Part shown: piece by piece, positions 44,880 to 62,017 of the stretch
How positions within the stretch are numbered: position 1 is the stretch's first letter
Layout of the letters: each line of letters begins with the position of its first letter
Assembly (NCBI GenBank): GCA_003550725.1
Contig: PUKZ01000144.1
Span: forward strand, 2,502-66,501
Length of the DNA stretch: 64,000 nt
Origin: Bacteroidales bacterium
GTDB taxonomy: Bacteria; Bacteroidota; Bacteroidia; Bacteroidales; UBA7960
Reading direction: 5' to 3'
Position numbers and translations under genes: made by a program
Notes under the pieces: model-generated
Told to the model about the DNA's origin: nothing
Database searches by the model: none
The model's input: the letters and a program-made list of their open reading frames with translations, nothing else

Positions 44880-45257
44880 TCAATCCTCCATAGGATAATA
44901 TATACAAGTTAAGATAAATTCTCCTGAAGGGTATTTGCTTTTTTCTACGTGAAGCTTATCGGCTTTCAGTTCGATTACAAACCATATTTCAGCCATTTTT
45001 TCAATATGAAGGCTTTGTGAGTTTCTAACCCTCCAGAAGTCCCATCTTGTATCACCTTTTTGCATAGTTCCGTCATCATAGAAAATTGTGGGGGCTGATT
45101 TATCGTACTCTCCAATGCCCGGGGCTTTTTCTATAATATGAGGTATCCCCCACTTCGTATCGATAAGGTCATCCTTATCAAATATGAATTGCTCATCATC
45201 ATTACATGATGCCAGATACATACCTATCATTATTAAAATGAGTTTCAGGTATTTCAT
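44880..45257 (-). CDS. small lipoprotein, last gene of the barrel-OmpA operon
   Basis: Lipobox MYLASCN. It starts 13 nt after the 1182 aa gene ends. Confidence 0.5.
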   Translation of the reverse strand: MKYLKLILIMIGMYLASCNDDEQFIFDKDDLIDTKWGIPHIIEKAPGIGEYDKSAPTIFYDDGTMQKGDTRWDFWRVRNSQSLHIEKMAEIWFVIELKADKLHVEKSKYPSGEFILTCIYYPMED

Positions 45258-45270
45258 TTTTTTCTTAAAA

Positions 45271-48200
45271 TTACTTATCGATAATTGTAATTTCTACTCT
45301 TCTGTTTCTTGCCCTGTTTTCTTCGGTATCATCGGGAGCAATCGGGCGGCTGTCTTTATATCCAACATATTCTATGTTTCCAAAACCTTGATCGAACATA
45401 TATTTAGCAACAGCTTCAGCTCTTTTGGCTGACAACTCGGGGTTATCGATTGTTTCCCTGCCATCAGAATGACCAGCTATCTGAATCCTGATATTTGGGT
45501 TTTGTTTCAGTTGTTCAATAAAGCGGTCAAGCTCAGCATAAGCCTCGGGTGGTATTTCATCACTTCCTGATGCAAAAACAAGATTTCTGAGCTCAACTTT
45601 TGAACCTACAATAATATTTTCTATCAATATTTCTTTCTCCACATCCTGTATAGTAAGATCCCGCTCAAGTCTTAAATCATCGGTATATAACCAGTAGCCG
45701 GGAGCTGATACCATAATCGAATAATTTTCATCTGTCATAAAGCTTGTATTGAACCTTCCGGTAGTTCTATCAGATCGCGTTGAAACAATAGTTTCACCGG
45801 TTTCATTATCTACTACTTCTACCGTAGCTCTGACGGGTTGGAGCGTAGCCCGGTCTTTGACATTACCCGATAAATTGGTGCGGCTTACGCTTACAGCCTC
45901 AACTTCTATATCTCTTTCGCTTGGACGGAAATCTATGCGACGCCTTTTTTCATCAAAAATAAAATTAACTTCAAATTGGTTATAAGCATTAAGATGCACA
46001 ATAAAATTATTTTGCCTCAAATTGAAGTGTTCTTCAAAAACATCGCGTACTGAAACCACGTAATCATCGAGGCTTGGTGCATACAATTCAAATTTACCCT
46101 CACTGTCGGTAAATGTTGAGATTGTGTTGCCCCTGCTATCAACAGCTTCTATTCTTATATTTGAAACATCAATTCTGCCAAGTGTAGAAAGTTTACTTCT
46201 GTTAAGCACAACTTGTCCGAAAATTCTATTTCTTTCAAGAAAGGGAATATCTACTACCTTATCTTCAGTAACATGTACCAGCACTTCACGTACATCGGGA
46301 ACAAAATTATCACGTTCTTCACCTATGTTGTTTATTTCTATCCTGTATAGGCCGGCAGCAAGATTTTCGTAAACAACTTTACCATACATATCAGATAGCA
46401 GCTTATTATTAACCAGTCGGCCCGTATATTCATAATCTTTATCAAATTCATCATAATATCTTGGATCTTCGCGATGTATTGTTACCAAAATATTAGCAAT
46501 ACCCGGGTCGTTAGGATCTCTCTCCAGTGTACCCTGCAGATCCTTGAACAGGTTTACCGTCAAATCGTGATACTTGATCCTTGGCTGATCCCAGTGAAAA
46601 TCTTTTCTAAGCCTTATTTCAAAGTAAGTGCTTGAATAATCGTATTGATCTTCGGTAACAAGATCAGTTGATACCTGGTAACCCATGGTATTAAGAAGGG
46701 TAACAGAAAAGCCCCTGTCAAAAAAGAAATCAAGCTGATTTTGAAAATAGAACCTTGTTGTTTTATATGTAAAATCGTGTGTAAAATTTACTTGAGAAGA
46801 AAGCTTTAACATGTCCTGGTATATAAAACCTTCGTAATAAGGCATAAGGCGAAGATTTTGAGTATAAGTGCCCCGGTAGAAATAATTAATTTGCTGGTGC
46901 AATCCATAAGGCCCGTAAAAATAATTCAGAAATGTTCCCCAATCACCTCTCCTAAGGCTGAAACTAAATTGGGCGTTAAAAAATTCATCCCTTGTTTCAA
47001 GGGCAGCAATACTTGGCCCGTCTAATGGTATAGAATAATCACTAACAAAATTATATCCCAGTTCCAGGGATGGGTTAAAAAACAAATGATGATTCTCTCT
47101 TATACGTGCCCCGATCTCTAAATTGGCACTATGTGTTTCAAAAGGAGTATCATCAAAATGTATATAAGAGTTTGTTGCACGGCTTCGGTATAGCGGCCCG
47201 AAAAATAGAGCAAAACCGGGATCAAGGTATTTTGTTGTTCTGAAATTAGCTCTCCTGGAGCTGGAAAATCTATCAGAGGTTATTCCTGATTCACTTTCAA
47301 TAACAGGTTTGTTTTTTCTATCATTAAACCTTAAAGTAAATAAAAGCCCGTCTTTATAATGATAACGCATTGACCCTCTAAAGTTATGTCGACCCACAAA
47401 ACTCCCATAATAATTAGTGCTTCCATATTGCTCACGCAATCTGATTCTCAAATTATTAATCCTGCCCATGTAATTAACAATAAACCCGTAGCCGATTTCC
47501 TGCTGGTCAACAGTTTTATAGGTAGCATCACTCAATCCTCCATCAATAGACAAGCTATGGCCTTCAAATAATTGTAAATTGGTGCCTGCTCCATATACAA
47601 AAGCCTCTGTATTAAAAAACTGGTTATCCACATGGGCAAACCTGGTGTGAATGTCAAAATTTTTACGGTATGAATCGAAACTACCCCCATAAGTTCTTAT
47701 CGGTCTAAACCGATTTTCAGCTACAACTCCGGTTATTTCATTTCTGTCTAAAAAACGATATTTAGCCTTAAGGCCTCTTCCTAATCCATATTTTAAGGGT
47801 ATACTTGCAACATCTCCAAAAGCAATATTATAATCAGGGGCATTAAATGCAACTCTGTATCTGCTGTGTCTCAGAATATCATCCCGTCTTCCTATCCCAT
47901 GAGCTCGAAACCTGTAATCAATATCCCTGTTTCCATCAAACAATATATTACCCATAACACTACCTGATAAGTAGGGGTCATATTCGCTAAATAGATTATG
48001 TATAATTAGTTCGGCGGTTAAAGGTATTTCTCCCGGTGGTATTGTATAGCGAAAATAATTTGTCAGATGACTGAACCAAAAAGTCGTACTGAATTGATCT
48101 TTTTCTGTTGATGCATCGAGGTCAACCCTGTAAAGTGTTTGATCCGTATAATTATTTTCATCATCCAATTGCACAGGTAAAGTTATTGTAGTATCTTTTC

Positions 48201-48819
48201 CGGCATCGAGACGAAGTTCAAATGCAAATTCATTATTTCTTTCCCTTGGCAACGAGACGCTCTCAGTGCTTGTTAAATTTATGTATATAACTTCATCTAT
48301 ATTACCCCTGTTCTCAAACATAAAGCTTATTTCACTTTCACCTGTTTCCTGGTCGAAATAAGATACACGGGTAAGGGGCCTAAAACGCAAATTTGATTCT
48401 GCCGGGATTTTAAGGTAGCAATAGGCATTAGCCAAATTTTGATCATCACGGTCTTTGACCGAAGCAATCACCGCATAACCGATTTCACCTCTAACATCCC
48501 TGGATGCAGCTACCCTCATCGGCACTACTATAGAATCACCACCTGCTATGGTAATATTGCGCCTGCCATCGGTAATAAGAGTCCAGCCCATTGGGGCATT
48601 AAAATCAACCTGGACAACCTCCGGCATAGTACCCCTGTTTACAACAGTTAAAACATTAAAAAAAGTTTCCTCAGGTTCTATTACCAGGTCCTCATGCCTG
48701 AAATATGCCTCAATTTGAGTAAAATCATAAGATTGATTGTTGGAACTTTGCGAATAGGAGTTAACAAGGCAAGCAGCATAAATAACTATAAATATCACAT
48801 ATTTAAAGTAGGTCTTCAT
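45271..48819 (-). CDS. large outer-membrane protein: Ig-like modules, beta-barrel region, CarboxypepD_reg-like modules and an OmpA peptidoglycan-binding C-terminus
   Basis: Signal peptide, a ~480 aa Y/F/R-rich strand region, and about three CarboxypepD_reg-like segments (e.g. GKFELYAPSLDDYVVSV, TGRFNTSFMTDENYSIMVSAPGYW). The OmpA_C motifs are NLVFASGSDEI, IAGHSDG, LSAKRAEAV and RNRRVEI. Confidence 0.75.
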   Translation of the reverse strand: MKTYFKYVIFIVIYAACLVNSYSQSSNNQSYDFTQIEAYFRHEDLVIEPEETFFNVLTVVNRGTMPEVVQVDFNAPMGWTLITDGRRNITIAGGDSIVVPMRVAASRDVRGEIGYAVIASVKDRDDQNLANAYCYLKIPAESNLRFRPLTRVSYFDQETGESEISFMFENRGNIDEVIYINLTSTESVSLPRERNNEFAFELRLDAGKDTTITLPVQLDDENNYTDQTLYRVDLDASTEKDQFSTTFWFSHLTNYFRYTIPPGEIPLTAELIIHNLFSEYDPYLSGSVMGNILFDGNRDIDYRFRAHGIGRRDDILRHSRYRVAFNAPDYNIAFGDVASIPLKYGLGRGLKAKYRFLDRNEITGVVAENRFRPIRTYGGSFDSYRKNFDIHTRFAHVDNQFFNTEAFVYGAGTNLQLFEGHSLSIDGGLSDATYKTVDQQEIGYGFIVNYMGRINNLRIRLREQYGSTNYYGSFVGRHNFRGSMRYHYKDGLLFTLRFNDRKNKPVIESESGITSDRFSSSRRANFRTTKYLDPGFALFFGPLYRSRATNSYIHFDDTPFETHSANLEIGARIRENHHLFFNPSLELGYNFVSDYSIPLDGPSIAALETRDEFFNAQFSFSLRRGDWGTFLNYFYGPYGLHQQINYFYRGTYTQNLRLMPYYEGFIYQDMLKLSSQVNFTHDFTYKTTRFYFQNQLDFFFDRGFSVTLLNTMGYQVSTDLVTEDQYDYSSTYFEIRLRKDFHWDQPRIKYHDLTVNLFKDLQGTLERDPNDPGIANILVTIHREDPRYYDEFDKDYEYTGRLVNNKLLSDMYGKVVYENLAAGLYRIEINNIGEERDNFVPDVREVLVHVTEDKVVDIPFLERNRIFGQVVLNRSKLSTLGRIDVSNIRIEAVDSRGNTISTFTDSEGKFELYAPSLDDYVVSVRDVFEEHFNLRQNNFIVHLNAYNQFEVNFIFDEKRRRIDFRPSERDIEVEAVSVSRTNLSGNVKDRATLQPVRATVEVVDNETGETIVSTRSDRTTGRFNTSFMTDENYSIMVSAPGYWLYTDDLRLERDLTIQDVEKEILIENIIVGSKVELRNLVFASGSDEIPPEAYAELDRFIEQLKQNPNIRIQIAGHSDGRETIDNPELSAKRAEAVAKYMFDQGFGNIEYVGYKDSRPIAPDDTEENRARNRRVEITIIDK

Positions 48820-49674: not shown

Positions 49675-50292
49675 TTATTCGCCCTCATGAGGCTGCAGGA
49701 TCAAAAACACATTGGTAGAGTACCTGTCGGCAGCTAATCCTTGCGAAAGCACACTCCCTAAATTTGTTACACCTTGCAGTTCTGCAGTTGCACATTCCCA
49801 ATGTATTGTAAATGCATTAGCATTAATATCACCTGCATTACTATTAGTGCCATCATATCCAACCAATAACTCGTCAGTATCTGAGGTTAAAGCCGTTACA
49901 GTTTCATGAGAGGGTATTTCAAGTTCATCAACAGTATTAGTACCTTGGGTTGCAAGCTGGTAACCGATATTTCCAAGATCCATTCCTCCTTCCATGCCTG
50001 CATCATCAGTAGCTACTAATTCATCATCTTCGGCATACATAAAAACATCCCAGTCAACAGAAGAAGCTACTGTAAACTCTGTGTCGTATGCTGCAGAATT
50101 TCCAATTCCTTCTTCATAATCAGCAAGAGTATTGAAGCTAAACTCAATATTCCCACCCGAAACAACATTCAGGCGCAAAATAGAGCTAAGTGTAACCGCA
50201 ACCGGTATAACAGCTCTATCATCAACAGCTTGCCCAAATGATACATTTCCTAAAAGCAATCCTCCGATCAAAAGAAAAACTATACGTTTCAT
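49675..50292 (-). CDS. secreted acidic protein (major fibre/surface subunit candidate)
   Basis: Signal peptide MKRIVFLLIGGLLLGNVSFG, a very D/E/T/G-rich mature part, and paralogy to the 48834-49418 product. Confidence 0.55.
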   Translation of the reverse strand: MKRIVFLLIGGLLLGNVSFGQAVDDRAVIPVAVTLSSILRLNVVSGGNIEFSFNTLADYEEGIGNSAAYDTEFTVASSVDWDVFMYAEDDELVATDDAGMEGGMDLGNIGYQLATQGTNTVDELEIPSHETVTALTSDTDELLVGYDGTNSNAGDINANAFTIHWECATAELQGVTNLGSVLSQGLAADRYSTNVFLILQPHEGE

Positions 50293-50451: not shown

Positions 50452-52434
50452 TTATAAGCCATTTCCTCCTAGTTTGAATCCAATAACCAAGACATCATCA
50501 ATTTGGTCTTCATCTTTCTTCCAGTCAAAAAAGTTTTGTTTCAACAACTTTTCCTGTATATCCATTGGTTCTTTATAAATATCCAGCAAGAAATTTTTGA
50601 AATTTTTAAGAAGGAATTTTCTGTTATTCTCGCCTCCAAACTGGTCGATATATCCATCAGAGAATATATAAAACCATGTAGGTTTGTTGACAGGTATTGT
50701 TGTTTTTGAGAAATTACGTTCGGTTTCTCTTTGTACACCACCGATCGACATTCTGTCGCCTTTTACTACTTTTGCTTCGCCGTCTTGTATATAAATAATT
50801 GATGTATGTGCCCCCGAAAACTCTAATGTTTTATGCTTTTTATTGATAACACAAAGCGACATATCCATTCCATCGCGGTTATCTCCTTCTTCTTGCTTTA
50901 GTGTTCGGCGTATACCTTTATGAAGGCTGGATAATATCTCATTGGGGGTTGTAATGCCATGATAAGTAATTTCGTCAAGAAGGTTATATCCAATCATAGA
51001 CATAAAAGCACCCGGCACTCCATGGCCGGTACAGTCAACAGCCGATATTATAAATTTGTCGTTTTCTATTGGCAGAAAGTCATTATTATTACCTGATTTC
51101 ATGATGTTCGTTTCATGGCCTTTTGCTTTCTTTTTATTTGTTACCGGCTCCTTTTGTATTTTTTCTTTTGTTTTTTTGGAGCTGTTGTTATCTATTTCCT
51201 TAAACCAGTAAAAATCACCACTTACTGTATGCAAAGGTTTAAAGAATATAAATGATTCCGGCAAATAATCTTTCAGAGTATCACGAGGAGGCAATAAAGC
51301 TTTTTGAATATCTTTGGCATAGTTGATACTATGAGTAATTTTAAGGTTTTGGTCTTCAATTTTATAATATGCTTCCTGTAATTGCTTGCTTTTATTTGCG
51401 ATTTCTTTGTTGGTTGCCTCAAGTTCTCTGTTAGCCCGCTGTTTGGCTCTATAGTTTCTAAATAATATTATCAACAAAAAAGCACCTATTACAAATACAC
51501 CAATACCATATGTAATAATAACTCTTTGAGTTCGTTGTTGCTCTTCCTGCTTTTCAAGTTGAGCTTGCTGAAGTTCCCTGTCAAGCTGAAGCCTTTCCAT
51601 TTCCTGTCTTGCCAAACTGTCGCGCGCATCAGCTATCAACAAAGAATCTTCTTTAGCTTCAACTATACGGCGAATCGAATCTTGTTCAGCCTCATAAACC
51701 AACTGCTGCCGCTCTATCTCCAACTCTCTTTCCCTGCGCTCAAGCCTTTCCTGGCGCAATTCAGCCTGACTCTTCTCTTCCCGGGCATGAAAATCTTCTT
51801 TAATAGATTCTGTTGCAATATAATCCTGCAAAGTGAAAAATTTTTGCTCATAATCAGAACCTTTTGCAACATTACCAATATTATTGTAATTTTTTGAAAG
51901 CTGATTATAAATATTAAGAAGCAATAATTGATAATTGTTTTCATCAGCAATCTTCTCAGCATCCTCCAAATAATCTACTGCTCTTTGATAATCGCCGGTT
52001 AAACCAACAACATATGCCAGGTCAACCAAACCAGTGGAGATCATGCGCCCACTTCCAATTTCCCTTCGCACATTTAAACTCTTTTCAAAATAATTTATAG
52101 CCCGGCGTAAATCTTCATTATCCAAATATATAAGACCAACATTGCTGTAAACATCTTTGATCTTCTCCAAATCACCAAGTTTTTCGTAAAGAGGTATTGT
52201 TTCAAGAAAATAATTTATCGCAAGATTATCCCTCTGATTATCCCAATAAATAAATGCAATTTTACTAAGGTGCGATACTGCATTTCTATACTCATCATTG
52301 TTTCTATAATAAGAAACCATCTCTTCATACTTGTCCACTTTAGTTTGATCAGCATCACTCAGAGGCCGCTGCTGCGAAAAACTATACTCACAAAACAATG
52401 ACAAGACAATCAATAAAATAAGGGTATTTTTCAT
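50452..52434 (-). CDS. transmembrane TPR-repeat sensor fused to a PP2C/SpoIIE phosphatase
   Basis: Signal peptide, TPR repeats (e.g. RRAINYFEKSLNV, QRAVDYLEDAEKI), an E/R/Q coiled coil and a TM helix (VIITYGIGVFVIGAFLLIILF). The C-terminal SpoIIE/PP2C motifs are SGDFYWF, DCTGHGVPGAFMS and SDGYIDQFGG. Confidence 0.85.
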   Translation of the reverse strand: MKNTLILLIVLSLFCEYSFSQQRPLSDADQTKVDKYEEMVSYYRNNDEYRNAVSHLSKIAFIYWDNQRDNLAINYFLETIPLYEKLGDLEKIKDVYSNVGLIYLDNEDLRRAINYFEKSLNVRREIGSGRMISTGLVDLAYVVGLTGDYQRAVDYLEDAEKIADENNYQLLLLNIYNQLSKNYNNIGNVAKGSDYEQKFFTLQDYIATESIKEDFHAREEKSQAELRQERLERRERELEIERQQLVYEAEQDSIRRIVEAKEDSLLIADARDSLARQEMERLQLDRELQQAQLEKQEEQQRTQRVIITYGIGVFVIGAFLLIILFRNYRAKQRANRELEATNKEIANKSKQLQEAYYKIEDQNLKITHSINYAKDIQKALLPPRDTLKDYLPESFIFFKPLHTVSGDFYWFKEIDNNSSKKTKEKIQKEPVTNKKKAKGHETNIMKSGNNNDFLPIENDKFIISAVDCTGHGVPGAFMSMIGYNLLDEITYHGITTPNEILSSLHKGIRRTLKQEEGDNRDGMDMSLCVINKKHKTLEFSGAHTSIIYIQDGEAKVVKGDRMSIGGVQRETERNFSKTTIPVNKPTWFYIFSDGYIDQFGGENNRKFLLKNFKNFLLDIYKEPMDIQEKLLKQNFFDWKKDEDQIDDVLVIGFKLGGNGL

Positions 52435-52976
52435 ATTAATTAAAAATGCTACAGTAAACTTAAATCTCTAAATTGAATTTTAATAAAATGAAAACAATCA
52501 GTTATTTTCATAATTTTTTAAGCTAAATAATTAAAACTATTTACAAATATTGTTTACGTTATATTTTTTTTTATGTTATACTTTTTTTTATATTATTCAG
52601 CTAATTCTATGCCAAATATAAAGAAAAATGTCCAATCAATATGCGTATAAATACTTATTTTAAAATTACGAAAATAATGCAAAAAAATCAGAAAAACTCG
52701 TAGTAATTAATTTTATAACTTTATTGTAATTTTATGTTATTATTTGTTTTTTGTTAAATTTATTAATTGTAATATATAAAAGTTTAATTTTGTTATTAAC
52801 AATGCGTATATTACTTAATATAAGGAATTAGTACAGTAGCGGTTTTATAAATTGCAGATCAAATGAAGTATAATTTAATTATGCATTTTAAAACTGCTAT
52901 GGGATAATTTACGTATATAAACATAAAAAATGAGTTTAACCAAATTATGTTATTTTAAAAATTAACTTTTACTCTA

Positions 52977-53783
52977 ATGAAAAAACTTTTTTTATTATTA
53001 ATAATTCAGTTTTTTGCAATTTCAACAATTATTTTGGCACAGGATTTTGAAGTTGCACCAATACAACTTAATTTTCGAATTGAGCCCGGGGGTACTGAAA
53101 GCCGGACTGTTACCGTAAAGAATCACGGTAACAGGAAAGAATCTATAACTTTGACAAAGAGAGATTTTTTAGTCCACAGGAATGGTAACAGGGAGGTTTT
53201 ACCTGCGGGTTCAATTGAAAACTCTATATCAGACTGGGCTACAGTTAACCCTTCATTTCTGGAGTTGCAACCTAATGAAGAGAAAGAAATTCAGGTTACA
53301 TTTCAGGCCCCGGTTGATGATGATCATCCTGCAAAATGGGGGATATTAAGTTTTGCGTCAGCAGTTGAAAGAACAGCATATACAGCCGACAAAGATGTAG
53401 AATCAGGCATATTTTTATCGGGCAGAATAGATATTTTTTTGACATATAACCCTCCTACAGATCAAGATCCAAATGTAGTAATAAGCAACCTCAGAGAGAT
53501 TTCACCAAAAGAAGACGGCCGGAGAGTATTTGCTGTTGATATAGACAATATCGGAAGCACATTAGCAAGATCTGAGATCTTTCTTATTGCTTCGAGCCTG
53601 GAAACAGATGTTGAGAAAAAATTTGAAACACAAAGAATAACTGCTTATCCACGATCTTCAAGAAAAGTTGAGCTTATACTACCTGATGTGCTGGAAAAAG
53701 GCAAATATTCGCTTGCCGCTATACTTGATTATGGCAGCAGAACAGAACTGAAAGGCACTCAAATTACAATTGAAGTTGATTAA
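52977..53783 (+). CDS. secreted two-lobed Ig-like protein (PapD-like periplasmic chaperone candidate)
   Basis: Signal peptide, then APIQLNFRIEPGGTESRTVTVKNHGN ... ATVNPSFLELQPNEEKEIQVTF. This resembles the strand pattern of PapD/MSP-fold chaperones. A second beta-rich half follows. The call is by pattern only. Confidence 0.45.
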   Translation: MKKLFLLLIIQFFAISTIILAQDFEVAPIQLNFRIEPGGTESRTVTVKNHGNRKESITLTKRDFLVHRNGNREVLPAGSIENSISDWATVNPSFLELQPNEEKEIQVTFQAPVDDDHPAKWGILSFASAVERTAYTADKDVESGIFLSGRIDIFLTYNPPTDQDPNVVISNLREISPKEDGRRVFAVDIDNIGSTLARSEIFLIASSLETDVEKKFETQRITAYPRSSRKVELILPDVLEKGKYSLAAILDYGSRTELKGTQITIEVD

Positions 53784-53802
53784 AAAGCCCTGTTGATCAT
53801 TT

Positions 53803-55005
53803 ATGGATAAAATACATTGCTTAATTACTTCACTGATACTACTTACAATATCAGTAAATATAAATTGCCTGGGGCAAACTCAAACGTTCAGGGTTTACTA
53901 TAGCTCTACCGGTGACATAAAAGAAGAATATACAGGTTATATTGAACAGGGAGACACAATAAAAGAAGGCAAATACAAATTTTATCTGCCCGGCGAAATT
54001 ATAAATCAGCAAGGATATTTTGTAAATAATAAACCAGAAGGCTTGTGGAAGCTTTATTATGATGTTGGTAAACTACATCAAAAAATTGAATTCTCAAAAG
54101 GTGTAAGGCACGGAAAAATTAAAGCGTTTTATAAAGACGGGAGTTTGCAACAAAAAGGATATTATAAGAATGGCCGGTTGGACGGAGAATTTATTTCTTA
54201 TTACAACGATGGTACTGTTGAAAGTATTTCAAATTATTCAAATGGAATTCAAGATGGTTTAAAGAAAATATTTTACCCCACCGGAATTATTTACCGTAAA
54301 TTTGAATTAAGATATGGTATTGAACACGGCCTCTGGCAAATGTATCATGAAAACGGAATGATCAACTATAATGGGAAAAAATCAAACGGAGAATTTGCCG
54401 ATACTTTAAAAGTTTATTATGAAAATGGTAATATTCAAAGAATATGCTATTATAAAAACGGGCTTTTAGAAGGTAAATACAAGGCTTTTGATAAAAATGG
54501 CAACCTTAGTATAAAAACATATTATAACAAAGGCAAAATAAATGGAAAGTATAAGGAGTATTATCCTGGTGGAAATATTCTTCAGAAAGGAAAATATTCC
54601 GAAAATAAAAAAGAAGGGATCTGGAGATCATATTATAATGATGGTTCTTTGCATGCTATCGGGAAATTTTGCAATGATGATTTTTCGGGTTTATGGAAAA
54701 TTTATTTCCCCAATGGCAACATAAAGCAGATAGGTGAATACAAAAATGGCAAATCGGAAGGCTTTTGGAGATTTTATGATAAAAATGGCAATATATCAAC
54801 TTATGGAAATTACAGCAGGGATCTAAAACAGGGTTACTGGATTATATATAGACACTGGAACGGTGTTAAAACGGCTGTTATTAAATTATACAACGGTTAT
54901 GAACCGGCAAAAACCAATGTATGTTTTGATAAAGCAAGCAAAAACAAAGACTTATTATATATTAAATCAATGCCTCTAATTGTTACTCATAACAGACAAA
55001 ATTGA
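53803..55005 (+). CDS. MORN-variant/YwqK-like repeat protein
   Basis: About 12 tandem ~23 aa repeats of the type G.Y.NGK.EG.WK.YY.NG, behind a signal/anchor sequence. Confidence 0.8.
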   Translation: MDKIHCLITSLILLTISVNINCLGQTQTFRVYYSSTGDIKEEYTGYIEQGDTIKEGKYKFYLPGEIINQQGYFVNNKPEGLWKLYYDVGKLHQKIEFSKGVRHGKIKAFYKDGSLQQKGYYKNGRLDGEFISYYNDGTVESISNYSNGIQDGLKKIFYPTGIIYRKFELRYGIEHGLWQMYHENGMINYNGKKSNGEFADTLKVYYENGNIQRICYYKNGLLEGKYKAFDKNGNLSIKTYYNKGKINGKYKEYYPGGNILQKGKYSENKKEGIWRSYYNDGSLHAIGKFCNDDFSGLWKIYFPNGNIKQIGEYKNGKSEGFWRFYDKNGNISTYGNYSRDLKQGYWIIYRHWNGVKTAVIKLYNGYEPAKTNVCFDKASKNKDLLYIKSMPLIVTHNRQN

Positions 55006-55411
55006 AATCCAGATTTGCCATATCAGCAAAATCTTCACCTGCCTCAAGCATATCTTCGTCATCTACTAAATAATACCAATCAATTGTTAATTCAGGATCT
55101 TTAGTTTCAATTTGTTTTATTAAGTCCAATATTTCCAGAATCATTTTAGATGAGGCGGTATTAAAATATTCCATGGTAAAAGAAACCTGAGTCCCCGGCT
55201 TCGGATCTTTTGCATACCAGCAAAGCCAGTCTTTTATCTTTCTGTAAAAACCTCTGGCATCTTCAGGTAATGATCTGCCCGAAAATAAAATTTTCCCCTT
55301 TTGCTTGTCTAACAAAATCTCCGGGGTTTCTGACGTCCTCTTTTTGGTCAAAACTTCAGGTAAATCATTACCATATCCATTTCTGCTTATCTTTTTTTCC
55401 TTTGTATCCAT
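54983..55411 (-). CDS. SiaC-like (DUF1987) regulatory phosphoprotein
   Basis: 142 aa with GRSLPEDARGFY, YFNTASSKMILEIL, DWYYLVDDEDMLEAGEDF and NFVCYE. This matches my memory of the DUF1987/SiaC family, including the NT(S)S phosphosite context. Confidence 0.7.
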   Translation of the reverse strand: MDTKEKKISRNGYGNDLPEVLTKKRTSETPEILLDKQKGKILFSGRSLPEDARGFYRKIKDWLCWYAKDPKPGTQVSFTMEYFNTASSKMILEILDLIKQIETKDPELTIDWYYLVDDEDMLEAGEDFADMANLDFNFVCYE

Positions 55412-55513
55412 AAATAAATTAAATGGTTTAACAGTTATATTTTTTGATTACCTCTTTTTATATATGTTTATATTAAATAAAAAACAATAACAACCCGGTC
55501 ATTATTGGTTTAC

Positions 55514-55951
55514 TTAATAACAAACAAAATTAAACTTAACACCTGCCCTTTCCTCGAAATCCTCACCGGCTTCAAGCATGTCTTCATCGTCATCAAGGTA
55601 TCGCCACTCAATTTTTAATACATTTTCGTTTTTTGCTTCAAAAATCTGTTTGAATAACTCAAGTAATTCTAATACCATTTTTGAGGAGGATGAATTTATA
55701 TATTCAAACTGAAAAATAACTTTAGTGTTTTGCTTTATATTATTTTTGGCATAATTGATTACCCAATCCATTATAGGTTTGTAAAAACTTTTTGCATCTT
55801 CGGGCAAAGAACGTCCTGATAATTTTATCAACCCTTTGTTTCTGTCGAGCAAAACTTCCGGAGAATCCATAGTTCCGCTAAGATAAAAGTAATTAAGGCT
55901 TGGAGCTTCACGAAGTTCTTTATATACGTCTTTTCTTGCTGAAGTTTCCAT
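55514..55951 (-). CDS. SiaC-like (DUF1987) regulatory phosphoprotein, paralogue
   Basis: 145 aa with GRSLPEDAKSFY, YINSSSSKMVLELL, EWRYLDDDEDMLEAGEDF and NFVCY. Confidence 0.7.
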   Translation of the reverse strand: METSARKDVYKELREAPSLNYFYLSGTMDSPEVLLDRNKGLIKLSGRSLPEDAKSFYKPIMDWVINYAKNNIKQNTKVIFQFEYINSSSSKMVLELLELFKQIFEAKNENVLKIEWRYLDDDEDMLEAGEDFEERAGVKFNFVCY

Positions 55952-56426
55952 TTTTTTATTTTAAGCTTAAAATAACAACACTCAGGTTAAATAAACCTCT
56001 ATTATTATAATTATTACGAAACAAATGTAAAAAAGGTTATAATTTAAAAACTCATGGAAACACGTAAAAATATTTTTTTTTAATATTAAATTTTAATTGG
56101 CTACATTAAAAAAGGCTGTTTATTCGATTTGTAAACTTTTTGTTATCAACAGCCGCATTACATATATGCTAATTAGAAAAATTGCTGACACATTTTGAAA
56201 ACAAGCAAACAAAGGCCGGTAAAATATCTTAATTTTAATGAATAAAATTCAATTAGCATTTAAACGTAAAAAAACAGGAAAAATTACGTGGCAAAAAGTT
56301 GTGTTTACAGGTTATACCTGCCTATTCAACTTAAATAATATTTCTGTCAACAACATTGATCCGATCTGTTATCTCAACTAAATTTATTAAGCTTTTCACA
56401 AAAAATTAAAAATAAAAAAAGTTTTT

Positions 56427-56458
56427 TTTGCCTTTTAAAGTAAAACTTTTTATGTTTG
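56427..56458 (+). promoter_or_regulatory. Bacteroidota sigma-A type promoter (TTTG-N20-TAtgTTTG)
   Basis: tttg at 56427-56430, a 20 nt spacer, then tatgtttg at 56451-56458. The promoter lies 58 nt upstream of the ATG at 56516. Confidence 0.5.
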
Positions 56459-56515
56459 ATGTATACAACACAGGCGTTTTTATTGCATTAATATTATACA
56501 AGTCATTTATTTCAT

Positions 56516-59500
56516 ATGTCTACGGAAAATAAAAAGTTTGCTTCAGAAGCATTAGAAGTTAACCTTGCCCAAACACGCAAGGCAGATATTGTTATACCTG
56601 ACGAACAAAAAAAAATTCTCAAATATTCAGAATCATACTGGGGTATAAATAAGCGTACTAAAGATTTTTTGCAGGAGTTAAATCATCCTTACGCTAATTA
56701 CCAATTTTTAGTTGATGAATACCGAAAAATCATATTAGGTGATTTTTGGCTATATGAGCAACATAACGAAGGTAAAGAAGCATTTTTGCTATTGCTCAAT
56801 ATCGCTGATAATCTTTTATCCAATAATTTGAGCAACAATGAATCAGGGCAGTTATTAAGAACATTGATGGAATTTGCAGGGGTATGTTCAAAAAGCAATA
56901 TGGCTTTCAGGGAAACTGTTATTGCAAAAGTTTTTTCAATACTTGAATCAATTTATCAAAATAACAGACACTTATTAATAAAAAATTCCGGTTTAATAAA
57001 AAAGCATTTCAAAGGATTAGCAGTTTCAGAAAATTTCTCGCAGCTCACTTTTGAGTTTACAAAAAAGATAGCTTTGGCCAATTTAGATTACTGGACAAAA
57101 AATGCCAAAGCCGGTGAGTGGTTTGATAAAAACAAGAAGCTTTTTGAGAAAGATTATTCCAAAGAGATAAAACTAATAGAAAGACCTTTTTTTGACCGGA
57201 TCAAAAAAAATATAGAGGCATCTTCCGATTGGAAATCACTGTGCGATAATGTTCCGTTTTTTAATGATATAACAGAGCATTTTCGCAGATTCATTGATAA
57301 ATTTGAAAAAAGCATTGAGAAGTTCTATTATATTATCTTTTTACTTCACTTGCCCGGCATGGAAAGCAGTCGTAATCAACTGCTTTGGGAACTGAACAGG
57401 ATACTTCGCAACATTCATGATGAGCTTAGAGCAGATGAAATAGTTGCTTTCATTGATAACATATTTTCACTATTCAAAGAGCTTAAACATGATCACATGT
57501 CAACTGTTCTTGACTGTATTCTTACCCTTGGCAAGGAGGTTATAAGTATTAAGGAGCGGAAAATTATCAGCTATTTTGAAAACAAGCTTATTGAGCTTGG
57601 TTTTGTCACACCCGGTTTGGTATATATTCAGGAAAACTGGCAGTTAAAAATTGACCCTAATCATTTGAAAAATATCAGGGTATGGCTTGAACTAATAGAA
57701 CATGCGCCATACACTTTCAGAAAGTTACTTTCGGCATTAATTGTAAACCTAAGGTTGGGCGGGATATTTATTTTTGACACCGATCTTTTTCAGCGCGATA
57801 TAACAATGTTGCTTAACAGTGATATTTCACCTTTATATAAACAGATAAAGCAGTTGACACGCATATTCCCGGTATATTTTAATGAGATTGGTGCCGAAGG
57901 TGACCTGCGTGATGTTACTACTGTTATGGACGAGATCTCAGGCAGACAGGATAAGCTCATACATTTCCTTAGAAAACAGGTGCATATTGAAGGTAATAAC
58001 TCACACATCGATCTGACTCGCAAAATTTTTCAATTCTGGTTTGACGGAAACCTGGATAATCTCAAGCCACATATCCCTGTAGATGTTTATGCAGCCATTG
58101 ATAAAGAAAGCCACTGGTTTACAAATGTTCACCAGATTATTAATCAAATGTGCTTGGAAAAAAAATGTAAGCCGGTTGATTTGCTCACTTTAAGTGAGGA
58201 TGAATTTGGTAATTTGCTTGAAGAGATAGAAAACGGCAGCAAAGACGATAAAAAACGGCTTAGACTATTGTTCAGGCTTTATAATCTTCTAAAGGAAAAG
58301 TATTCATTTGAAACTACCGACATTACAACTATTTTAAAGAAATACCCCTTCTTTGAAGAAAAAGAAATATACAAGCTTGATGACCATCTTAACAGTGGCA
58401 ACACAGAAAAAGCTATTGGAGCAATATATAAATTCATGGAAAAGCTTAACCAGGTTATATTCAGCAAAGAATACAGCCAGGGATGGGAAAGCATATATCA
58501 CAAAAGACATATTGCATTTGGTATACCTTCAATGTACGGTCAATACCGGGAGACCAAATTTGAAGCACTGGGAGTGATATTCAGGCTTGAAAAACTTGCT
58601 TCAAAGCTAATGGAGAAAAGAATTTACGGCTTTCAAACTGAATATATAACCGCCAAAGCACTTAAAGAATCATACCAGATACTTAAATTGTTTCAAAAAG
58701 GACTTGAACTAGACGGGGTTACAAGCCAGGTATTGGATTCTAATCTTCAAATGCTAAAATATGGACTTACCAGCCAAAGCTTCTCATTAGACCAGTTTAT
58801 AAATCTATTCCAGTTTATAGCAAAAAATGTGAAAGAAATTACATATACATACTTTTTTAGTTTTTATGATCAGCCTTTAAGAATGATTATTCCACAACTT
58901 TTCGATACTGAAAAAAAACTGAATGAAAAAGAGTTAAATCAGCTAATTGTAAGCAAATCCGAAGTTTTTTACAGGGAAATCCTTTACTCTTCTTTTTTGA
59001 TTCAGTTGCTCGATAATTTTGTAAGCAGAATAATTCATTCGTTACAAAATATGGTTGATAATTTTAGCCAGGAAGTCATTCGAAGAATAATGTCGTATGA
59101 TTCTGACCTGATTATAAGCCCTTTATACAAAGAAACCTTAAAAGTTGATAATCAAATTTTTCTTGGGTCCAAGGCTCTATATCAAAAAAAACTTTATTTG
59201 TCGGGATTTCCTGTGCCTCCTGGTTTTGTTTTGACCACGGAAGTATTTAGAAGCCGCCGGGCCATACTTTCCAACCCCACATTATCAAGAGAGGTTGATG
59301 ACCTGGTAAAAAGTCATATAAAAAAGTTGGAAAAGCTTACAGGCCAGCTATATGGTAGCCCTGAAAACCCGTTACTTTTATCGGTAAGATCGGGTACTGC
59401 TATTTCGATGCCCGGGGCAATGAATACATTTCTAAATGTTGGCATGAATGATAAAATAGTTGAAGCTTTCAGCCGTCAGCCCAACTTCGGATGGACATCA

Positions 59501-60631
59501 TGGGATTGTTACCGGCGTTTTCTACAAAGCTGGGGAATGACCTATGGTATAAACCGCGATATTTTTGACCAGGTTATGATTGATTATAAAAATATTTATA
59601 AAATAGATCAAAAGATACATTTTACTTCCAGGCAAATGCGTGAAATTGCTTTTGCCTATAAAGAAATACTGGAAAAAAATAATGTTAAATTTGAAGAAGA
59701 TCCATGGCAGCAGCTAAAACAGGCAATAATGAGCGTATTTGATTCCTGGTCTTCAAAAAGAGCGATTGTCTACCGGGATCACTTGCAAATTGCCGAAGAA
59801 TGGGGCACTGCTGTGGTAATACAAAAAATGGTGCTTGGTAATATCTATGACTATTCGGGTACAGGAGTAGTTTTTACATACAATCCTCAAATACAAAAAC
59901 CGGGAATATATCTCAACGGCGATTTCACTATGTGTAGCCAGGGAGAAGACATTGTTGCCGGGCTTGTACATGCACTTCCGGTATCGGTTTCACAAAAACA
60001 GCTAACTCAGCGTGAAAATCAGATTTCGCTTGAAGAAAGGCTGCCTGAAATTTACAACCGTTTATACGAAATTGCCTATAGCCTGGTTGAAAAACTTGGC
60101 TATAATCACCAGGAGATTGAATTTACCTATGAGTCGGAAAATCCTGAAGACTTATACATTTTACAAATACGTGATCAGGACACACGCAAAGTTGAAAGAA
60201 TGGAGGTTTTCAGTGAGCCGGTATCAAACATGAAACTTTTGGCAAGAGGAATTGGTGGCGGAGGAGGTGCACTGACAGGCAGGCTGGCAATAGACATGGA
60301 AGACATAAAAATGTTGAGAAAAAAATATCCCGATGAAAAATGTATCCTCGTAAGACCTGATACGGTACCTGATGATATACCAATTATTTTTGAATGCGAC
60401 GGCCTGGTAGCAGCCAGAGGCGGCACCACATCACATGCTGCAGTGACAGCAGCTAGATTAGGAAAAACATGCGTGCTTAATTGTCATCATCTAATAGTGT
60501 ATGAGAAAGAAAAAGAATGTAGTATTAACGGACATATACTAAAACCCGGTGATAAAATATCTATTGACGGGTTCGCAGGAAATATTTTTAGCGGATATTA
60601 TAAAACCGAATTAACTGAAATTGTCAATTAA
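56516..60631 (+). CDS. 1371 aa protein: ~880 aa unknown helical N-terminal region plus PPDK-type ATP-grasp and phosphohistidine swivel domains, with no PEP/pyruvate barrel
   Basis: From ~aa 880 the protein carries LGSKALYQKKLYLSGFPVPPGFVLTTEVF, PLLLSVRSGTAISMPGAMNTFLNVGMND and WDCYRRFLQSWG. These are followed by GTAVVIQKMVLGN, GTGVVFTYNP, CSQGEDIVAG and EIEFTYE...LYILQIRDQ. Next come ILVRPDTVPDD and GGTTSHAAVTAARLGKTCV (His1307, nt 60434-60436). Only ~64 aa follow the His. Confidence 0.8.
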   Translation: MSTENKKFASEALEVNLAQTRKADIVIPDEQKKILKYSESYWGINKRTKDFLQELNHPYANYQFLVDEYRKIILGDFWLYEQHNEGKEAFLLLLNIADNLLSNNLSNNESGQLLRTLMEFAGVCSKSNMAFRETVIAKVFSILESIYQNNRHLLIKNSGLIKKHFKGLAVSENFSQLTFEFTKKIALANLDYWTKNAKAGEWFDKNKKLFEKDYSKEIKLIERPFFDRIKKNIEASSDWKSLCDNVPFFNDITEHFRRFIDKFEKSIEKFYYIIFLLHLPGMESSRNQLLWELNRILRNIHDELRADEIVAFIDNIFSLFKELKHDHMSTVLDCILTLGKEVISIKERKIISYFENKLIELGFVTPGLVYIQENWQLKIDPNHLKNIRVWLELIEHAPYTFRKLLSALIVNLRLGGIFIFDTDLFQRDITMLLNSDISPLYKQIKQLTRIFPVYFNEIGAEGDLRDVTTVMDEISGRQDKLIHFLRKQVHIEGNNSHIDLTRKIFQFWFDGNLDNLKPHIPVDVYAAIDKESHWFTNVHQIINQMCLEKKCKPVDLLTLSEDEFGNLLEEIENGSKDDKKRLRLLFRLYNLLKEKYSFETTDITTILKKYPFFEEKEIYKLDDHLNSGNTEKAIGAIYKFMEKLNQVIFSKEYSQGWESIYHKRHIAFGIPSMYGQYRETKFEALGVIFRLEKLASKLMEKRIYGFQTEYITAKALKESYQILKLFQKGLELDGVTSQVLDSNLQMLKYGLTSQSFSLDQFINLFQFIAKNVKEITYTYFFSFYDQPLRMIIPQLFDTEKKLNEKELNQLIVSKSEVFYREILYSSFLIQLLDNFVSRIIHSLQNMVDNFSQEVIRRIMSYDSDLIISPLYKETLKVDNQIFLGSKALYQKKLYLSGFPVPPGFVLTTEVFRSRRAILSNPTLSREVDDLVKSHIKKLEKLTGQLYGSPENPLLLSVRSGTAISMPGAMNTFLNVGMNDKIVEAFSRQPNFGWTSWDCYRRFLQSWGMTYGINRDIFDQVMIDYKNIYKIDQKIHFTSRQMREIAFAYKEILEKNNVKFEEDPWQQLKQAIMSVFDSWSSKRAIVYRDHLQIAEEWGTAVVIQKMVLGNIYDYSGTGVVFTYNPQIQKPGIYLNGDFTMCSQGEDIVAGLVHALPVSVSQKQLTQRENQISLEERLPEIYNRLYEIAYSLVEKLGYNHQEIEFTYESENPEDLYILQIRDQDTRKVERMEVFSEPVSNMKLLARGIGGGGGALTGRLAIDMEDIKMLRKKYPDEKCILVRPDTVPDDIPIIFECDGLVAARGGTTSHAAVTAARLGKTCVLNCHHLIVYEKEKECSINGHILKPGDKISIDGFAGNIFSGYYKTELTEIVN

Positions 60632-60685
60632 AATTGATAACCAAAATAATTATTGAAAAGTGTTTTATGAAAGATTATAATTGAT

Positions 60686-60719
60686 TTTGCTTTTCTTTCA
60701 AAATTGAATTATAAGTTTG
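60686..60719 (+). promoter_or_regulatory. candidate promoter (TTTG-N22-TAagTTTG) for the GAPDH-like gene
   Basis: tttg at 60686-60689 and taagtttg at 60712-60719. The spacer is slightly longer than the usual 19-21 nt. Confidence 0.35.
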
Positions 60720-60766
60720 TATATTTTTATTAAAACTAAATTATAACCTTAAAATTTTTATAAGCT

Positions 60767-62017
60767 ATGAATAATATATTTAATAATAAAAACTTAATTG
60801 GCATAAATGGTCTTGGACGAATAGGTAAGTTAACATTATGGGGCTTTATTGCCAATGGTTATTTTGACGGAGCCATAATAAACGTAGGGCGTGAGGTTGG
60901 TAAAAAGCTTGAAGATGTTATCCAGGTCATTGAATCAGATTCCACTTATGGATCTTTAGCAAGATTTATTAATGGTCATAGCAGCAACAGGATTGATATT
61001 TCCATTGTTGATGAAAATGAAGGAATTATTGATTTTGACGGGTTTATAATAAAAATATTACGAAATGACCGCAATCCCGCAAATATTAAATGGAAGGAAA
61101 ATGGTGTAAGTATAGTTGTTGACTGCACCGGTGTTTTTCTTGATCCAACTGCACCTCCTGATGAACCTAAAGGCAGTTTAAGAGGTCATTTGGAAGCAGG
61201 TGCACAGAAAGTGATTCTCAGTGCACCATTTAAAATCAAAGATAAGACAAGAAAAATGCCTGATGACAGTTTTATGATGGTATACGGTATTAATCACCTT
61301 GATTTTGATGCTTCCAAACATCATATACTTTCAGCTGCCAGTTGTACAACAACATGCCTGGCACATATGATGTATCCTTTGCTCCAAAACGAAGAAACAT
61401 CAAAAATAATGACGGCATCTATGTCAACAGTCCATGCAGCAACCAACAGTCAAAGCGTACTGGACCTGGTTCCCAAAAAAGGCGCATCAGATCTGAGAAA
61501 AACTAGGTCGGTACTGAATAATATTATTATAACCAGTACAGGAGCAGCAAGAGCCCTGGAAAAGATAATAACCGAAATAAAAGAGATAGGCTTTATGGCC
61601 GACTCAGTCAGAATACCTACAAATACAGTATCGTTAATTATTTTAAACCTGACTTTCAGCTCACAAGTTGACGATAAAGGCGAACCTTTAATTAATAAAG
61701 ACTTTTTGAACAATATTTATAACACAGCTTCAAAAGGTTATCAAAAGGATCTTTTGATTTTTAGTGAAAAACAAAATGTTTCTGCCGACATGATAGGTAA
61801 CCCTGCAGCAGCAGTAATTGAAGGTCATGAAACCCACACCAGAACAGGATTTATAAACTTGCCCGAAACAGCTATGAGTTCAATTGGAATTAAAGTAGAT
61901 AAAGACCTCAATTTGCCTGTTACCCATGCCAAAATTTTCGGATGGTACGATAATGAGTTTGGATATGTTAGTTGTCTTGAAAAACTAACGGATTATATTG
62001 ATAAAAACATGAGATAA
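60767..62017 (+). CDS. long, divergent glyceraldehyde-3-phosphate dehydrogenase family protein
   Basis: GINGLGRIGK Rossmann start, active-site SAASCTTTCLAHM (compare SNASCTTNCLAP), MSTVHAATNSQ, TGAARAL and GWYDNEFGY. Its 416 aa include insertions relative to ~335 aa GapA. Confidence 0.8.
   Translation: MNNIFNNKNLIGINGLGRIGKLTLWGFIANGYFDGAIINVGREVGKKLEDVIQVIESDSTYGSLARFINGHSSNRIDISIVDENEGIIDFDGFIIKILRNDRNPANIKWKENGVSIVVDCTGVFLDPTAPPDEPKGSLRGHLEAGAQKVILSAPFKIKDKTRKMPDDSFMMVYGINHLDFDASKHHILSAASCTTTCLAHMMYPLLQNEETSKIMTASMSTVHAATNSQSVLDLVPKKGASDLRKTRSVLNNIIITSTGAARALEKIITEIKEIGFMADSVRIPTNTVSLIILNLTFSSQVDDKGEPLINKDFLNNIYNTASKGYQKDLLIFSEKQNVSADMIGNPAAAVIEGHETHTRTGFINLPETAMSSIGIKVDKDLNLPVTHAKIFGWYDNEFGYVSCLEKLTDYIDKNMR

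Follow-up and report, generated by a model that had tools for sequence, protein, structure and literature searches.

A predicted Sia-type partner switch tied to a conserved envelope gene cluster in Bacteroidales, with candidate kinases encoded elsewhere in the genome

Introduction

In Pseudomonas aeruginosa, the phosphatase SiaA and the kinase SiaB toggle the phosphorylation of SiaC, which binds its effector, the diguanylate cyclase SiaD, only when unphosphorylated. Which kinase serves such a switch, and what does the switch act on, when a phosphatase and its putative substrates are encoded with neither kinase nor cyclase at hand? This question is raised by a 64,000-nucleotide stretch of the genome of a Bacteroidales bacterium (assembly GCA_003550725.1, contig PUKZ01000144.1, positions 2,502 to 66,501 of the forward strand; hereafter the window). 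It encodes a 660-residue TPR-transmembrane-PP2C protein and, in tandem, two small SiaC-family (DUF1987) proteins of 142 and 145 residues (SiaC142 and SiaC145). A previous sequence-only reading had proposed a rewired switch that controls the adjacent surface locus, with its kinase either encoded elsewhere or supplied by a neighbouring PPDK-like giant. Our analysis points to a Sia-family switch tied to a cluster of genes for exported proteins, in a genome that carries three SiaB-family kinases on other contigs and no diguanylate cyclase.

The genome that contains the window (G000; 3.02 Mb, 195 contigs, 89% complete) was compared with 40 relatives of the same order, giving a set of 41 genomes, and with a more distant Bacteroidota set (loci numbered with L) in which 80 TPR-transmembrane-PP2C loci were surveyed. 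SiaC domains were identified with Pfam PF09345 (gathering threshold 24.5 bits), SiaB-family kinases with NF038262 (DUF6272) and GGDEF domains with PF00990; the equivalog cut-offs of NCBIfam are 700 bits for SiaA, 150 bits for SiaC (NF038265) and 600 bits for FimS.

A SiaA-like sensor phosphatase and two SiaC-family proteins

The 660-residue protein reads, in order, as a signal-like N-terminal hydrophobic core, a TPR region, a long charged coiled coil, one transmembrane helix and a SpoIIE/PP2C domain. Hydropathy places the single internal helix at residues 305-323, with basic residues after it, and the cytoplasmic part consists of coiled coil and SpoIIE/PP2C domain. Pfam matches to TPR_12 (7.5e-19, best stretch at residues 95-164) and to SpoIIE (5.5e-14, residues 459-651) agree with this layout, and the closest solved relative is the PP2C domain of SiaA itself (PDB 6k4e, E 3.1e-33). 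The PP2C motifs VDCTGHGVPGA, DGMD, SDGYIDQ and DDV are invariant across eight orthologues and paralogues, so that the metal-binding aspartates are intact. The architecture and the SiaA-like identity that had been proposed from the letters alone are upheld by these searches, including the profile search for SpoIIE. Against the NCBIfam SiaA equivalog the protein scores 169.7 bits and misses the cut-off, because its sensor half differs. The TPR region (residues 57-242) matches NCBIfam FimS instead, with an E-value of 7.6e-12 and 44 bits, well under the equivalog cut-off of that family. We also observed a Lys-rich, low-complexity insert within the PP2C domain at about residues 413-458, between the GDFYWF and VDCTGHG motifs, the sequence of which is variable among orthologues.

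Both small proteins match PF09345 over model positions 2-118 of 120, with 120.8 bits for SiaC142 and 117.3 bits for SiaC145, far over the gathering threshold, and both match the sequence of SiaC in PDB 6k4f (1.4e-11). They do not reach the NCBIfam SiaC equivalog (68.4 and 68.7 bits). As judged from these scores, the 660-, 142- and 145-residue proteins are members of the Sia family, and not orthologues of the Pseudomonas proteins.

The phosphosite of P. aeruginosa SiaC, Thr68, has been proven experimentally (peptide LLYLNTSSIK; PMC7647112). Thr85 of SiaC142 and Ser87 of SiaC145 align with it at the N-terminus of helix alpha2, in line with the threonine in one protein and the serine in the other that had been picked out by motif. 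Threonine is kept at this position in every protein of the 142-type, those of modules with a single SiaC included, and serine in all five orthologues of the 145-type; the SiaC of a paralogous module on contig C191 of the same genome also carries serine.

In a tree, the 142-type and the 145-type form one clade as sisters (support 99/97), and modules with a single SiaC carry the 142-type. Both types share a conserved N-terminal extension of about 25 residues, which reads METSARKD.YKEL in the 145-type and is missing from the SiaC of a siaABC cassette. The pair is consistent with a tandem duplication within the family. The gene for SiaC142 is convergent with a neighbouring gene for a MORN-repeat protein, and their 3' ends overlap by 23 bp (54983-55005); an overlap of 14-23 bp is kept in G002, G003, G004, G014 and G023, and because it is kept in several genomes an antisense interplay of the two genes is possible.

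Conservation of the module

The phosphatase and SiaC genes stand in a conserved block. Along the window it consists of genes for a 125-residue lipoprotein, an 1182-residue giant with an OmpA domain, exported proteins of 194 and 205 residues and the TPR-transmembrane-PP2C protein, all on the minus strand; then genes for a 268-residue exported protein and the 400-residue MORN protein on the plus strand; and then one or two SiaC genes, again on the minus strand. The block recurs in 17 genomes from several Bacteroidales families. Eleven belong to the set of 41, namely four of the window's own genus (G000, G002, G003 and G004), G011, G014, G018, G020, G023, G008 (partial) and, in another family, G032. 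The others are distant metagenome-assembled genomes (L053-L056, L061 and L062), labelled Bacteroidales, Salinivirgaceae and Draconibacterium, with a PP2C identity of 37-42%.

The most faithful marker of the module is the gene for the 268-residue protein (11 of the 41 genomes). In all genomes whose flanking sequence was retrieved it has the MORN gene next to it and, with the single exception of G008, the PP2C gene as well. The genes for the 205- and 194-residue proteins are kept together in module copies, the OmpA giant is conserved 3' of them, and orthologues of the 125-residue protein come after the giant in G003, G018 and G023. Of the 14 evaluable copies, 11 have SiaC within the block or adjoining it. 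Its position varies: it may follow the MORN gene, the PP2C gene with nothing in between (L053) or the OmpA giant (L061), as one would expect if the link were functional and not historical. The slot held by the SiaC pair in the window, next to the MORN gene, is occupied by a SiaB gene in L055 and L056, and in these lineages the module carries its own kinase.

A paralogous operon is present on contig C191 of the same genome, with genes for a SiaC of 127 residues, a TPR-transmembrane-PP2C protein of 618 residues, an OmpA protein of 329 residues and a protein of 596 residues. The SiaC gene lies there 9 bp upstream of the PP2C gene. Operons of this type are conserved in G002, G003, L059 and L060, and there is a version in L065 with no detected SiaC. 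More generally, OmpA_C genes are about fourfold enriched around the 80 Bacteroidota TPR-transmembrane-PP2C loci (1.13 per 100 kb, as compared with about 0.26 per 100 kb in the window's own genome), and all 14 of them lie within 5 kb of the PP2C gene. SiaC is carried by 21 of the 80 loci, 10 of which have no SiaB nearby. Phosphatase and SiaC without a local SiaB are thus a recurrent arrangement in Bacteroidota, and to call the present switch rewired overstates its uniqueness.

Taken on gene order and co-conservation, the Sia switch is tied to a conserved envelope or fibre gene cluster. The sequence-only reading had gone further and placed that surface locus under the control of the switch. The link between the two stands, as they are conserved together across genera and families; from the sequence, the cluster could be the output of the switch, its input or both.

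Kinases and cyclases in the genome

Searches of the window gave no SiaB-family, HATPase_c_2 or GGDEF match, as the sequence-only reading had stated, and NF038262 found nothing on the whole contig. For SiaB this absence is only local. The genome contains six SiaC domains, five SpoIIE-type PP2Cs, three SiaB-family kinases, no GGDEF domain and at most one small STAS protein, a marginal one. The first kinase belongs to a canonical siaA(GAF-PAS-PP2C)-siaB-siaC cassette on contig C17, the second is fused to a SiaC domain in a 314-residue protein on C192, and the third is a stand-alone copy linked to recG on C191 (48867-49442). It had been suggested that the kinase could be elsewhere, and the genome search bears this out: plausibly, the kinase for the SiaC pair would be one of these three. 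An RsbW-type kinase was rejected as a candidate, as HATPase_c_2 gave a single weak match in the genome, in a 377-residue open reading frame, and the actual kinases are of the DUF6272/SiaB type.

The generic components of a partner switch (PP2C, kinase and antagonist) are all present in the genome and are co-distributed in the order: SiaC was found in 23 and SiaB in 22 of the 41 genomes, and all 22 genomes with SiaB also have SiaC. Four relatives (G005, G010, G017 and G024) have exactly one SiaB and one SiaC, and none of them has the two on a single contig; in G005, which is well assembled, the separation is clear. Kinase action in trans would therefore be normal in this group.

When 39 SiaB sequences are placed in a tree, those of the stand-alone type group as a clade (support 93/92). 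Each genome that has the type contributes one copy, and the branches are so short that it can be called slow-evolving. It lies immediately upstream of recG in 10 of 10 genomes. Within the family its distribution coincides with that of the module marker, 10 genomes having both and 15 having neither; G001, of the same genus as the window, is among the latter. In the window's genome no substrate gene accompanies this kinase, while four SiaC genes (those for SiaC142 and SiaC145 and one each on C191 and C186) have no adjacent kinase, and for this reason the stand-alone, recG-linked SiaB would be the most parsimonious candidate.

No GGDEF domain was matched in the window's own genome, and in the 40 relatives none was credible: they gave two weak fragments only, of which the first just passes the cut-off but is interrupted by a stop codon, and the second falls short of it. 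The absence of a GGDEF gene that had been noted for the window thus holds for the entire genome, the siaB cassette on C17 being likewise without siaD. With no credible GGDEF domain in 41 genomes, a SiaD-type cyclase cannot be what these switches act on, nor therefore can cyclic di-GMP (c-di-GMP) be their output.

The other Sia genes of this genome show several further arrangements. In the C17 cassette (G000:C17:122805-129654), a siaA gene for a transmembrane-GAF-PAS-PP2C protein of 865 residues, siaB (193 residues) and siaC (124 residues) are directly followed by a gene for a 1046-residue ABC transporter with an extra N-terminal domain, which is possibly a non-cyclase output of SiaC; this cassette was the one place where we saw an ABC gene in such association. 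On C192 (12052-17226), the SiaB-SiaC fusion gene lies beside genes for a 106-residue coiled-coil protein and two TPR-transmembrane proteins; one of these, of 707 residues, is probably a pseudo-phosphatase, since the DxxGHG motif of PP2C and a SpoIIE match are both missing. The SiaC gene on C186 (23134-24498; 124 residues) is an orphan, followed by a gene for a 296-residue DnaB-C-terminal/RecA-like P-loop protein, with no PP2C or SiaB gene nearby. The stand-alone SiaB (G000:C191:46676-52441) is usually divergent from a gene for a TonB-dependent receptor. Up to 21 SiaC and 18 SiaB copies occur in one genome, and tandem SiaB-SiaB-SiaC fusions of about 380-530 residues are also found.

The envelope genes of the cluster

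The features of the cluster and its surroundings are listed in Table 1. All the non-Sia genes of the module carry signal peptides or lipoboxes, and the PP2C gene heads a same-strand run with the genes for the 205- and 194-residue proteins and the OmpA giant.

Table 1. Features of the switch, the envelope cluster and the adjoining region, in window coordinates.
Feature	Coordinates	Strand	Basis and remarks
Putative lipoprotein, 125 residues, last gene of the conserved block	44880..45257	-	Sequence; LASC lipobox
Exported envelope protein, 1182 residues, CarboxypepD_reg and C-terminal OmpA peptidoglycan-binding domain (OmpA giant)	45271..48819	-	Pfam OmpA 1.6e-16, CarboxypepD_reg 3e-12; PDB OmpA-family matches
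Exported paralogue of the 205-residue protein, 194 residues	48834..49418	-	phmmer 205 vs 194, about 3e-5
Acidic exported protein, 205 residues, downstream of the PP2C gene; candidate donor-strand-exchange fibre subunit	49675..50292	-	AlphaFold and fold search
SiaA-like sensor phosphatase, 660 residues	50452..52434	-	Pfam, PDB SiaA 6k4e, NCBIfam, hydropathy, invariant catalytic motifs
Divergent control region between the PP2C and 268-residue genes, 542 bp	52435..52976	.	-7 boxes TAnnTTTG in correct orientation, 52613-52620(-) and 52785-52792(+)
PapD-like (Ig-like) exported two-domain protein, 268 residues, divergent from the PP2C gene	52977..53783	+	AlphaFold and Foldseek
MORN_2-repeat exported protein, 400 residues, co-directional with the 268-residue gene	53803..55005	+	Pfam MORN_2 8.4e-35; N-terminal hydrophobic segment
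SiaC-family protein SiaC142 (142-type), 142 residues, predicted phosphosite Thr85 in YFNTASSK	54983..55411	-	Pfam SiaC 3.3e-35; PDB 6k4f
SiaC-family protein SiaC145 (145-type), 145 residues, Ser87 in YINSSSSK at the phosphosite position	55514..55951	-	Pfam SiaC 4e-34
Region upstream of SiaC145, 564 bp	55952..56515	.	Candidate -7 boxes: SiaC145 56022-56029(-), SiaC142 55525-55532(-)
PPDK-like giant, 1371 residues	56516-60631	+	PPDK_N with the mobile domain of PEP-utilizers; no barrel; N-terminal stretch of about 870 residues unannotated

The AlphaFold model of the 268-residue protein (predicted local distance difference test, pLDDT, of 80) has two Ig-like domains. Foldseek matched it to WxLIP (5e-12) and to the chaperones CfaA, CsuC, FimC, PapD and Caf1M (1e-9 to 1e-7), which suggests a PapD-like chaperone. 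The 205-residue protein has no Pfam or NCBIfam match. Its model (pLDDT 78) has as its top fold match in PDB the TLP-1b fibril 9ikk (E 5.6e-5), a weak match, followed by the CfaB and CS17 pilins at about 1e-2; a sequence profile of the 205- and 194-residue proteins also ranks 9ikk first in PDB, at a level that is not significant (E 0.99). These models suggest that the two proteins may be donor-strand fibre subunits. TLP-1b, a donor-strand-exchange fibril, was observed when pond water was examined by cryo-EM, and it has been proposed to represent an as yet uncharacterised pilus of bacterial origin (PMC11494351).

No homologue of an outer-membrane usher was identified in the cluster; over its first 980 residues the OmpA giant has no Pfam family match. 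PADLOC gave no defence-system match beyond generic matches to TPR and MotB/OmpA domains. The Bacteroidetes -7 motif TAnnTTTG is not enriched across the window (110 found, 107 expected), and scans for sigma-70 promoters and terminators gave no excess over shuffles, so that the promoter assignments of Table 1 are positional hints only.

How the switch may work

The probable explanation, in our view, is that Bacteroidales have their own form of the SiaABC partner switch, with its genes scattered over the genome, and that it is dedicated to the conserved envelope or fibre cluster. For the question of who phosphorylates whom, for the cue and for the effector, we infer the following scheme. The 660-residue protein would hold its TPR sensor outside the cytoplasmic membrane and its SiaA-type PP2C domain inside. 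An envelope cue, probably related to the co-conserved exported proteins (the 268-residue protein, the MORN protein, the 205/194 pair and the OmpA giant), would lead the PP2C domain to dephosphorylate SiaC142 at Thr85 and SiaC145 at Ser87. Re-phosphorylation would take place in trans by one of the three SiaB-family kinases, with the stand-alone, recG-linked copy favoured, and unphosphorylated SiaC would bind an effector that is not a cyclase.

Several observations weigh against this scheme. Every non-Sia gene of the module codes for an exported product, and because the cluster encodes no cytoplasmic target of SiaC, the output is a guess. Three copies of the module (G018, G032 and L062) have no SiaC nearby, and in G008 the SiaC, MORN and 268-residue genes stand together as a trio, but a PP2C gene is missing over the nearest 20 kb. 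The phyletic profile does not single out a kinase, since the C192-type SiaB clade occurs in the same 10 genomes as the stand-alone clade. Finally, the fold match of the 205-residue protein to a fibre subunit is weak (TMq 0.47).

The direction could be reversed, a less probable arrangement than a dedicated switch and yet by no means a negligible one. The envelope or fibre proteins would be the input; the periplasmic TPR region would monitor the load of chaperone or subunits, or the OmpA-anchored complex, and SiaC would relay the state to a global target encoded away from the cluster, for instance a transcription factor, a component of secretion or the shared SiaB in the role of an anti-sigma-type binder. 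The cluster might, just as tentatively, be co-inherited because it contains the ligands of the sensor. This fits the fact that all co-conserved non-Sia genes are exported while SiaC is cytoplasmic, and that the 268-MORN-PP2C core is the most constant part of the module, with SiaC varying in position and sometimes absent. There is also a precedent: YfiB, of the YfiBNR system, is an OmpA-family lipoprotein that acts as an envelope sensor for a signalling enzyme, although the likeness here is limited to similarity of the OmpA domain. Against the reversed direction, the cluster may serve as input and output at once through feedback, and the run of genes headed by the PP2C gene means that co-expression fits regulation of the locus as well.

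It could also be argued that the SiaC pair are not substrates of the 660-residue phosphatase at all. In that case they would either serve a different Sia circuit, that of the C17 cassette or that of the C192 fusion cluster, or function independently of phosphorylation, and their closeness to the PP2C gene would be a relic of history. The pair does lie in a separate transcription unit, 2,549 bp from the PP2C gene with two opposite-strand genes between, SiaC145 has serine in place of threonine, and there are the three module copies without SiaC. To this we would give only a slim chance. SiaC stays with the module in most evaluable genomes despite having moved to three positions, in L053 it directly follows the PP2C gene, and on C191 the two form one operon. 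Nor is the serine an obstacle, as serine and threonine are both substrates of PP2C phosphatases and SiaB-type kinases in partner switches.

The remaining proposal, in which the PPDK-like ATP-grasp/phosphohistidine giant next door replaces SiaB and phosphorylates the pair from a shared divergent control region of about 560 bp, is scarcely credible. It draws on the divergent 564 bp between SiaC145 and the giant, present in the window's own genome and in G004, and on a phosphohistidine swivel domain combined with an unannotated N-terminal part of 870 residues. These two genomes, of one genus, are however the only ones in which the giant adjoins the SiaC pair, so that a joint control region is not conserved beyond them, and none of the evaluable giants in other genomes stands beside SiaC; the recurrent adjacency of DUF1987 and PPDK-like genes that had been proposed as a check is not there. 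The whole Sia module is kept in G002 and G003, whose genomes contain no giant, and in G003, G020, G014, G008 and G023 the far side of SiaC is occupied by entirely different genes. Full-length orthologues of the giant are patchy (11 of the 41 genomes), and they co-occur with the module in three genomes, where 2.95 would be expected by chance. In 10 of 10 evaluable genomes, the window's own included (window 56516-62017), the giant is instead directly followed by a gene for a 416-residue, insertion-bearing GAPDH-like protein, and the genome has three bona fide SiaB-family kinases. Synteny and chance-level co-occurrence led us to rule out the giant as a kinase or partner of SiaC. By its gene order, it appears to form with its GAPDH-like partner an unrelated two-gene unit that abuts the SiaC pair in this genus.

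Relation to known systems

The reference for the dedicated switch that we favour is SiaABCD of P. aeruginosa (PA0172-PA0169; PDB 6k4e, 6k4f, 6kko and 7e6g; PMC7647112, PMC8457831). The two have in common a PP2C-ended membrane sensor nearest to SiaA, SiaC-fold proteins with serine or threonine at the Thr68 position, DUF6272 kinases in the genome and a theme of cell-surface or aggregation structures. The present system differs in having no credible GGDEF protein, a kinase outside the locus and two SiaC paralogues, one with threonine and one with serine. Its genes are spread over three transcription units within a cluster for envelope proteins, its proteins miss the NCBIfam equivalog cut-offs, and its sensor is an extracytoplasmic TPR region, not the periplasmic and HAMP domains of SiaA.

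The same logic of PP2C phosphatase, phosphorylatable antagonist and kinase governs RsbU/RsbV/RsbW and SpoIIE/SpoIIAA/SpoIIAB in Bacillus, as well as RsbU-RsbV1/V2-RsbW in Chlamydia, where RsbU has an extracytoplasmic domain; in such switches the antagonists can outnumber the kinases. Unlike these, the locus described here has a DUF1987 substrate and not a STAS protein, the kinases are of the SiaB/DUF6272 type and not HATPase_c_2, and no sigma-factor target is evident. A parallel in setting is FimS/FimR of Porphyromonas gingivalis, likewise a Bacteroidales membrane sensor with an extracytoplasmic TPR region beside a surface-fibre locus; its output, however, is a histidine kinase acting on a response regulator, in contrast to a PP2C phosphatase acting on SiaC-type proteins.

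As to the neighbouring genes, the PapD-like fold of the 268-residue protein recalls chaperone-usher fibres (CfaA/CfaB of CFA/I, Csu and type 1 pili), and the top fold match of the 205-residue protein is the TLP-1b protomer of the TLP-1 fibrils (PDB 9ikj, 9ikk; PMC11494351). The sequence similarity of the neighbours to either class is not significant, and the fibre genes surround the switch without being part of it. One might speculate that a TLP-1-like donor-strand-exchange pilus is encoded by the cluster, and that the split Sia switch is its dedicated, c-di-GMP-independent checkpoint for assembly or expression in Bacteroidales, with the recG-linked SiaB as a housekeeping hub kinase for several orphan SiaC proteins. 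As a whole this seems doubtful. The TLP-1 class is so far known only from pond-water cryo-EM, without an assigned organism, assembly machinery or regulation.

Implications

Full-text literature searches found work on SiaC/DUF1987 only for P. aeruginosa. The authors of the SiaC-SiaD structure suggested that in other bacteria, too, DUF1987 proteins exert a modulating effect on their neighbours (PMC8457831). In the order studied here, SiaB and SiaC are common in the absence of any credible GGDEF protein, and outputs other than a cyclase are required. The frequent separation of kinase and substrate genes suggests a network in which several inputs share kinases. The locus offers a concrete and widely conserved test case, in which a TPR sensor phosphatase and SiaC accompany a cluster resembling those of chaperone-assisted fibres. 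Its main interest possibly lies in this conserved coupling to what may be a new pilus locus, together with the evidence for kinases acting in trans. A SiaC target found here would define a new output class for the family, and might assign a regulation to an uncharacterised type of pilus.

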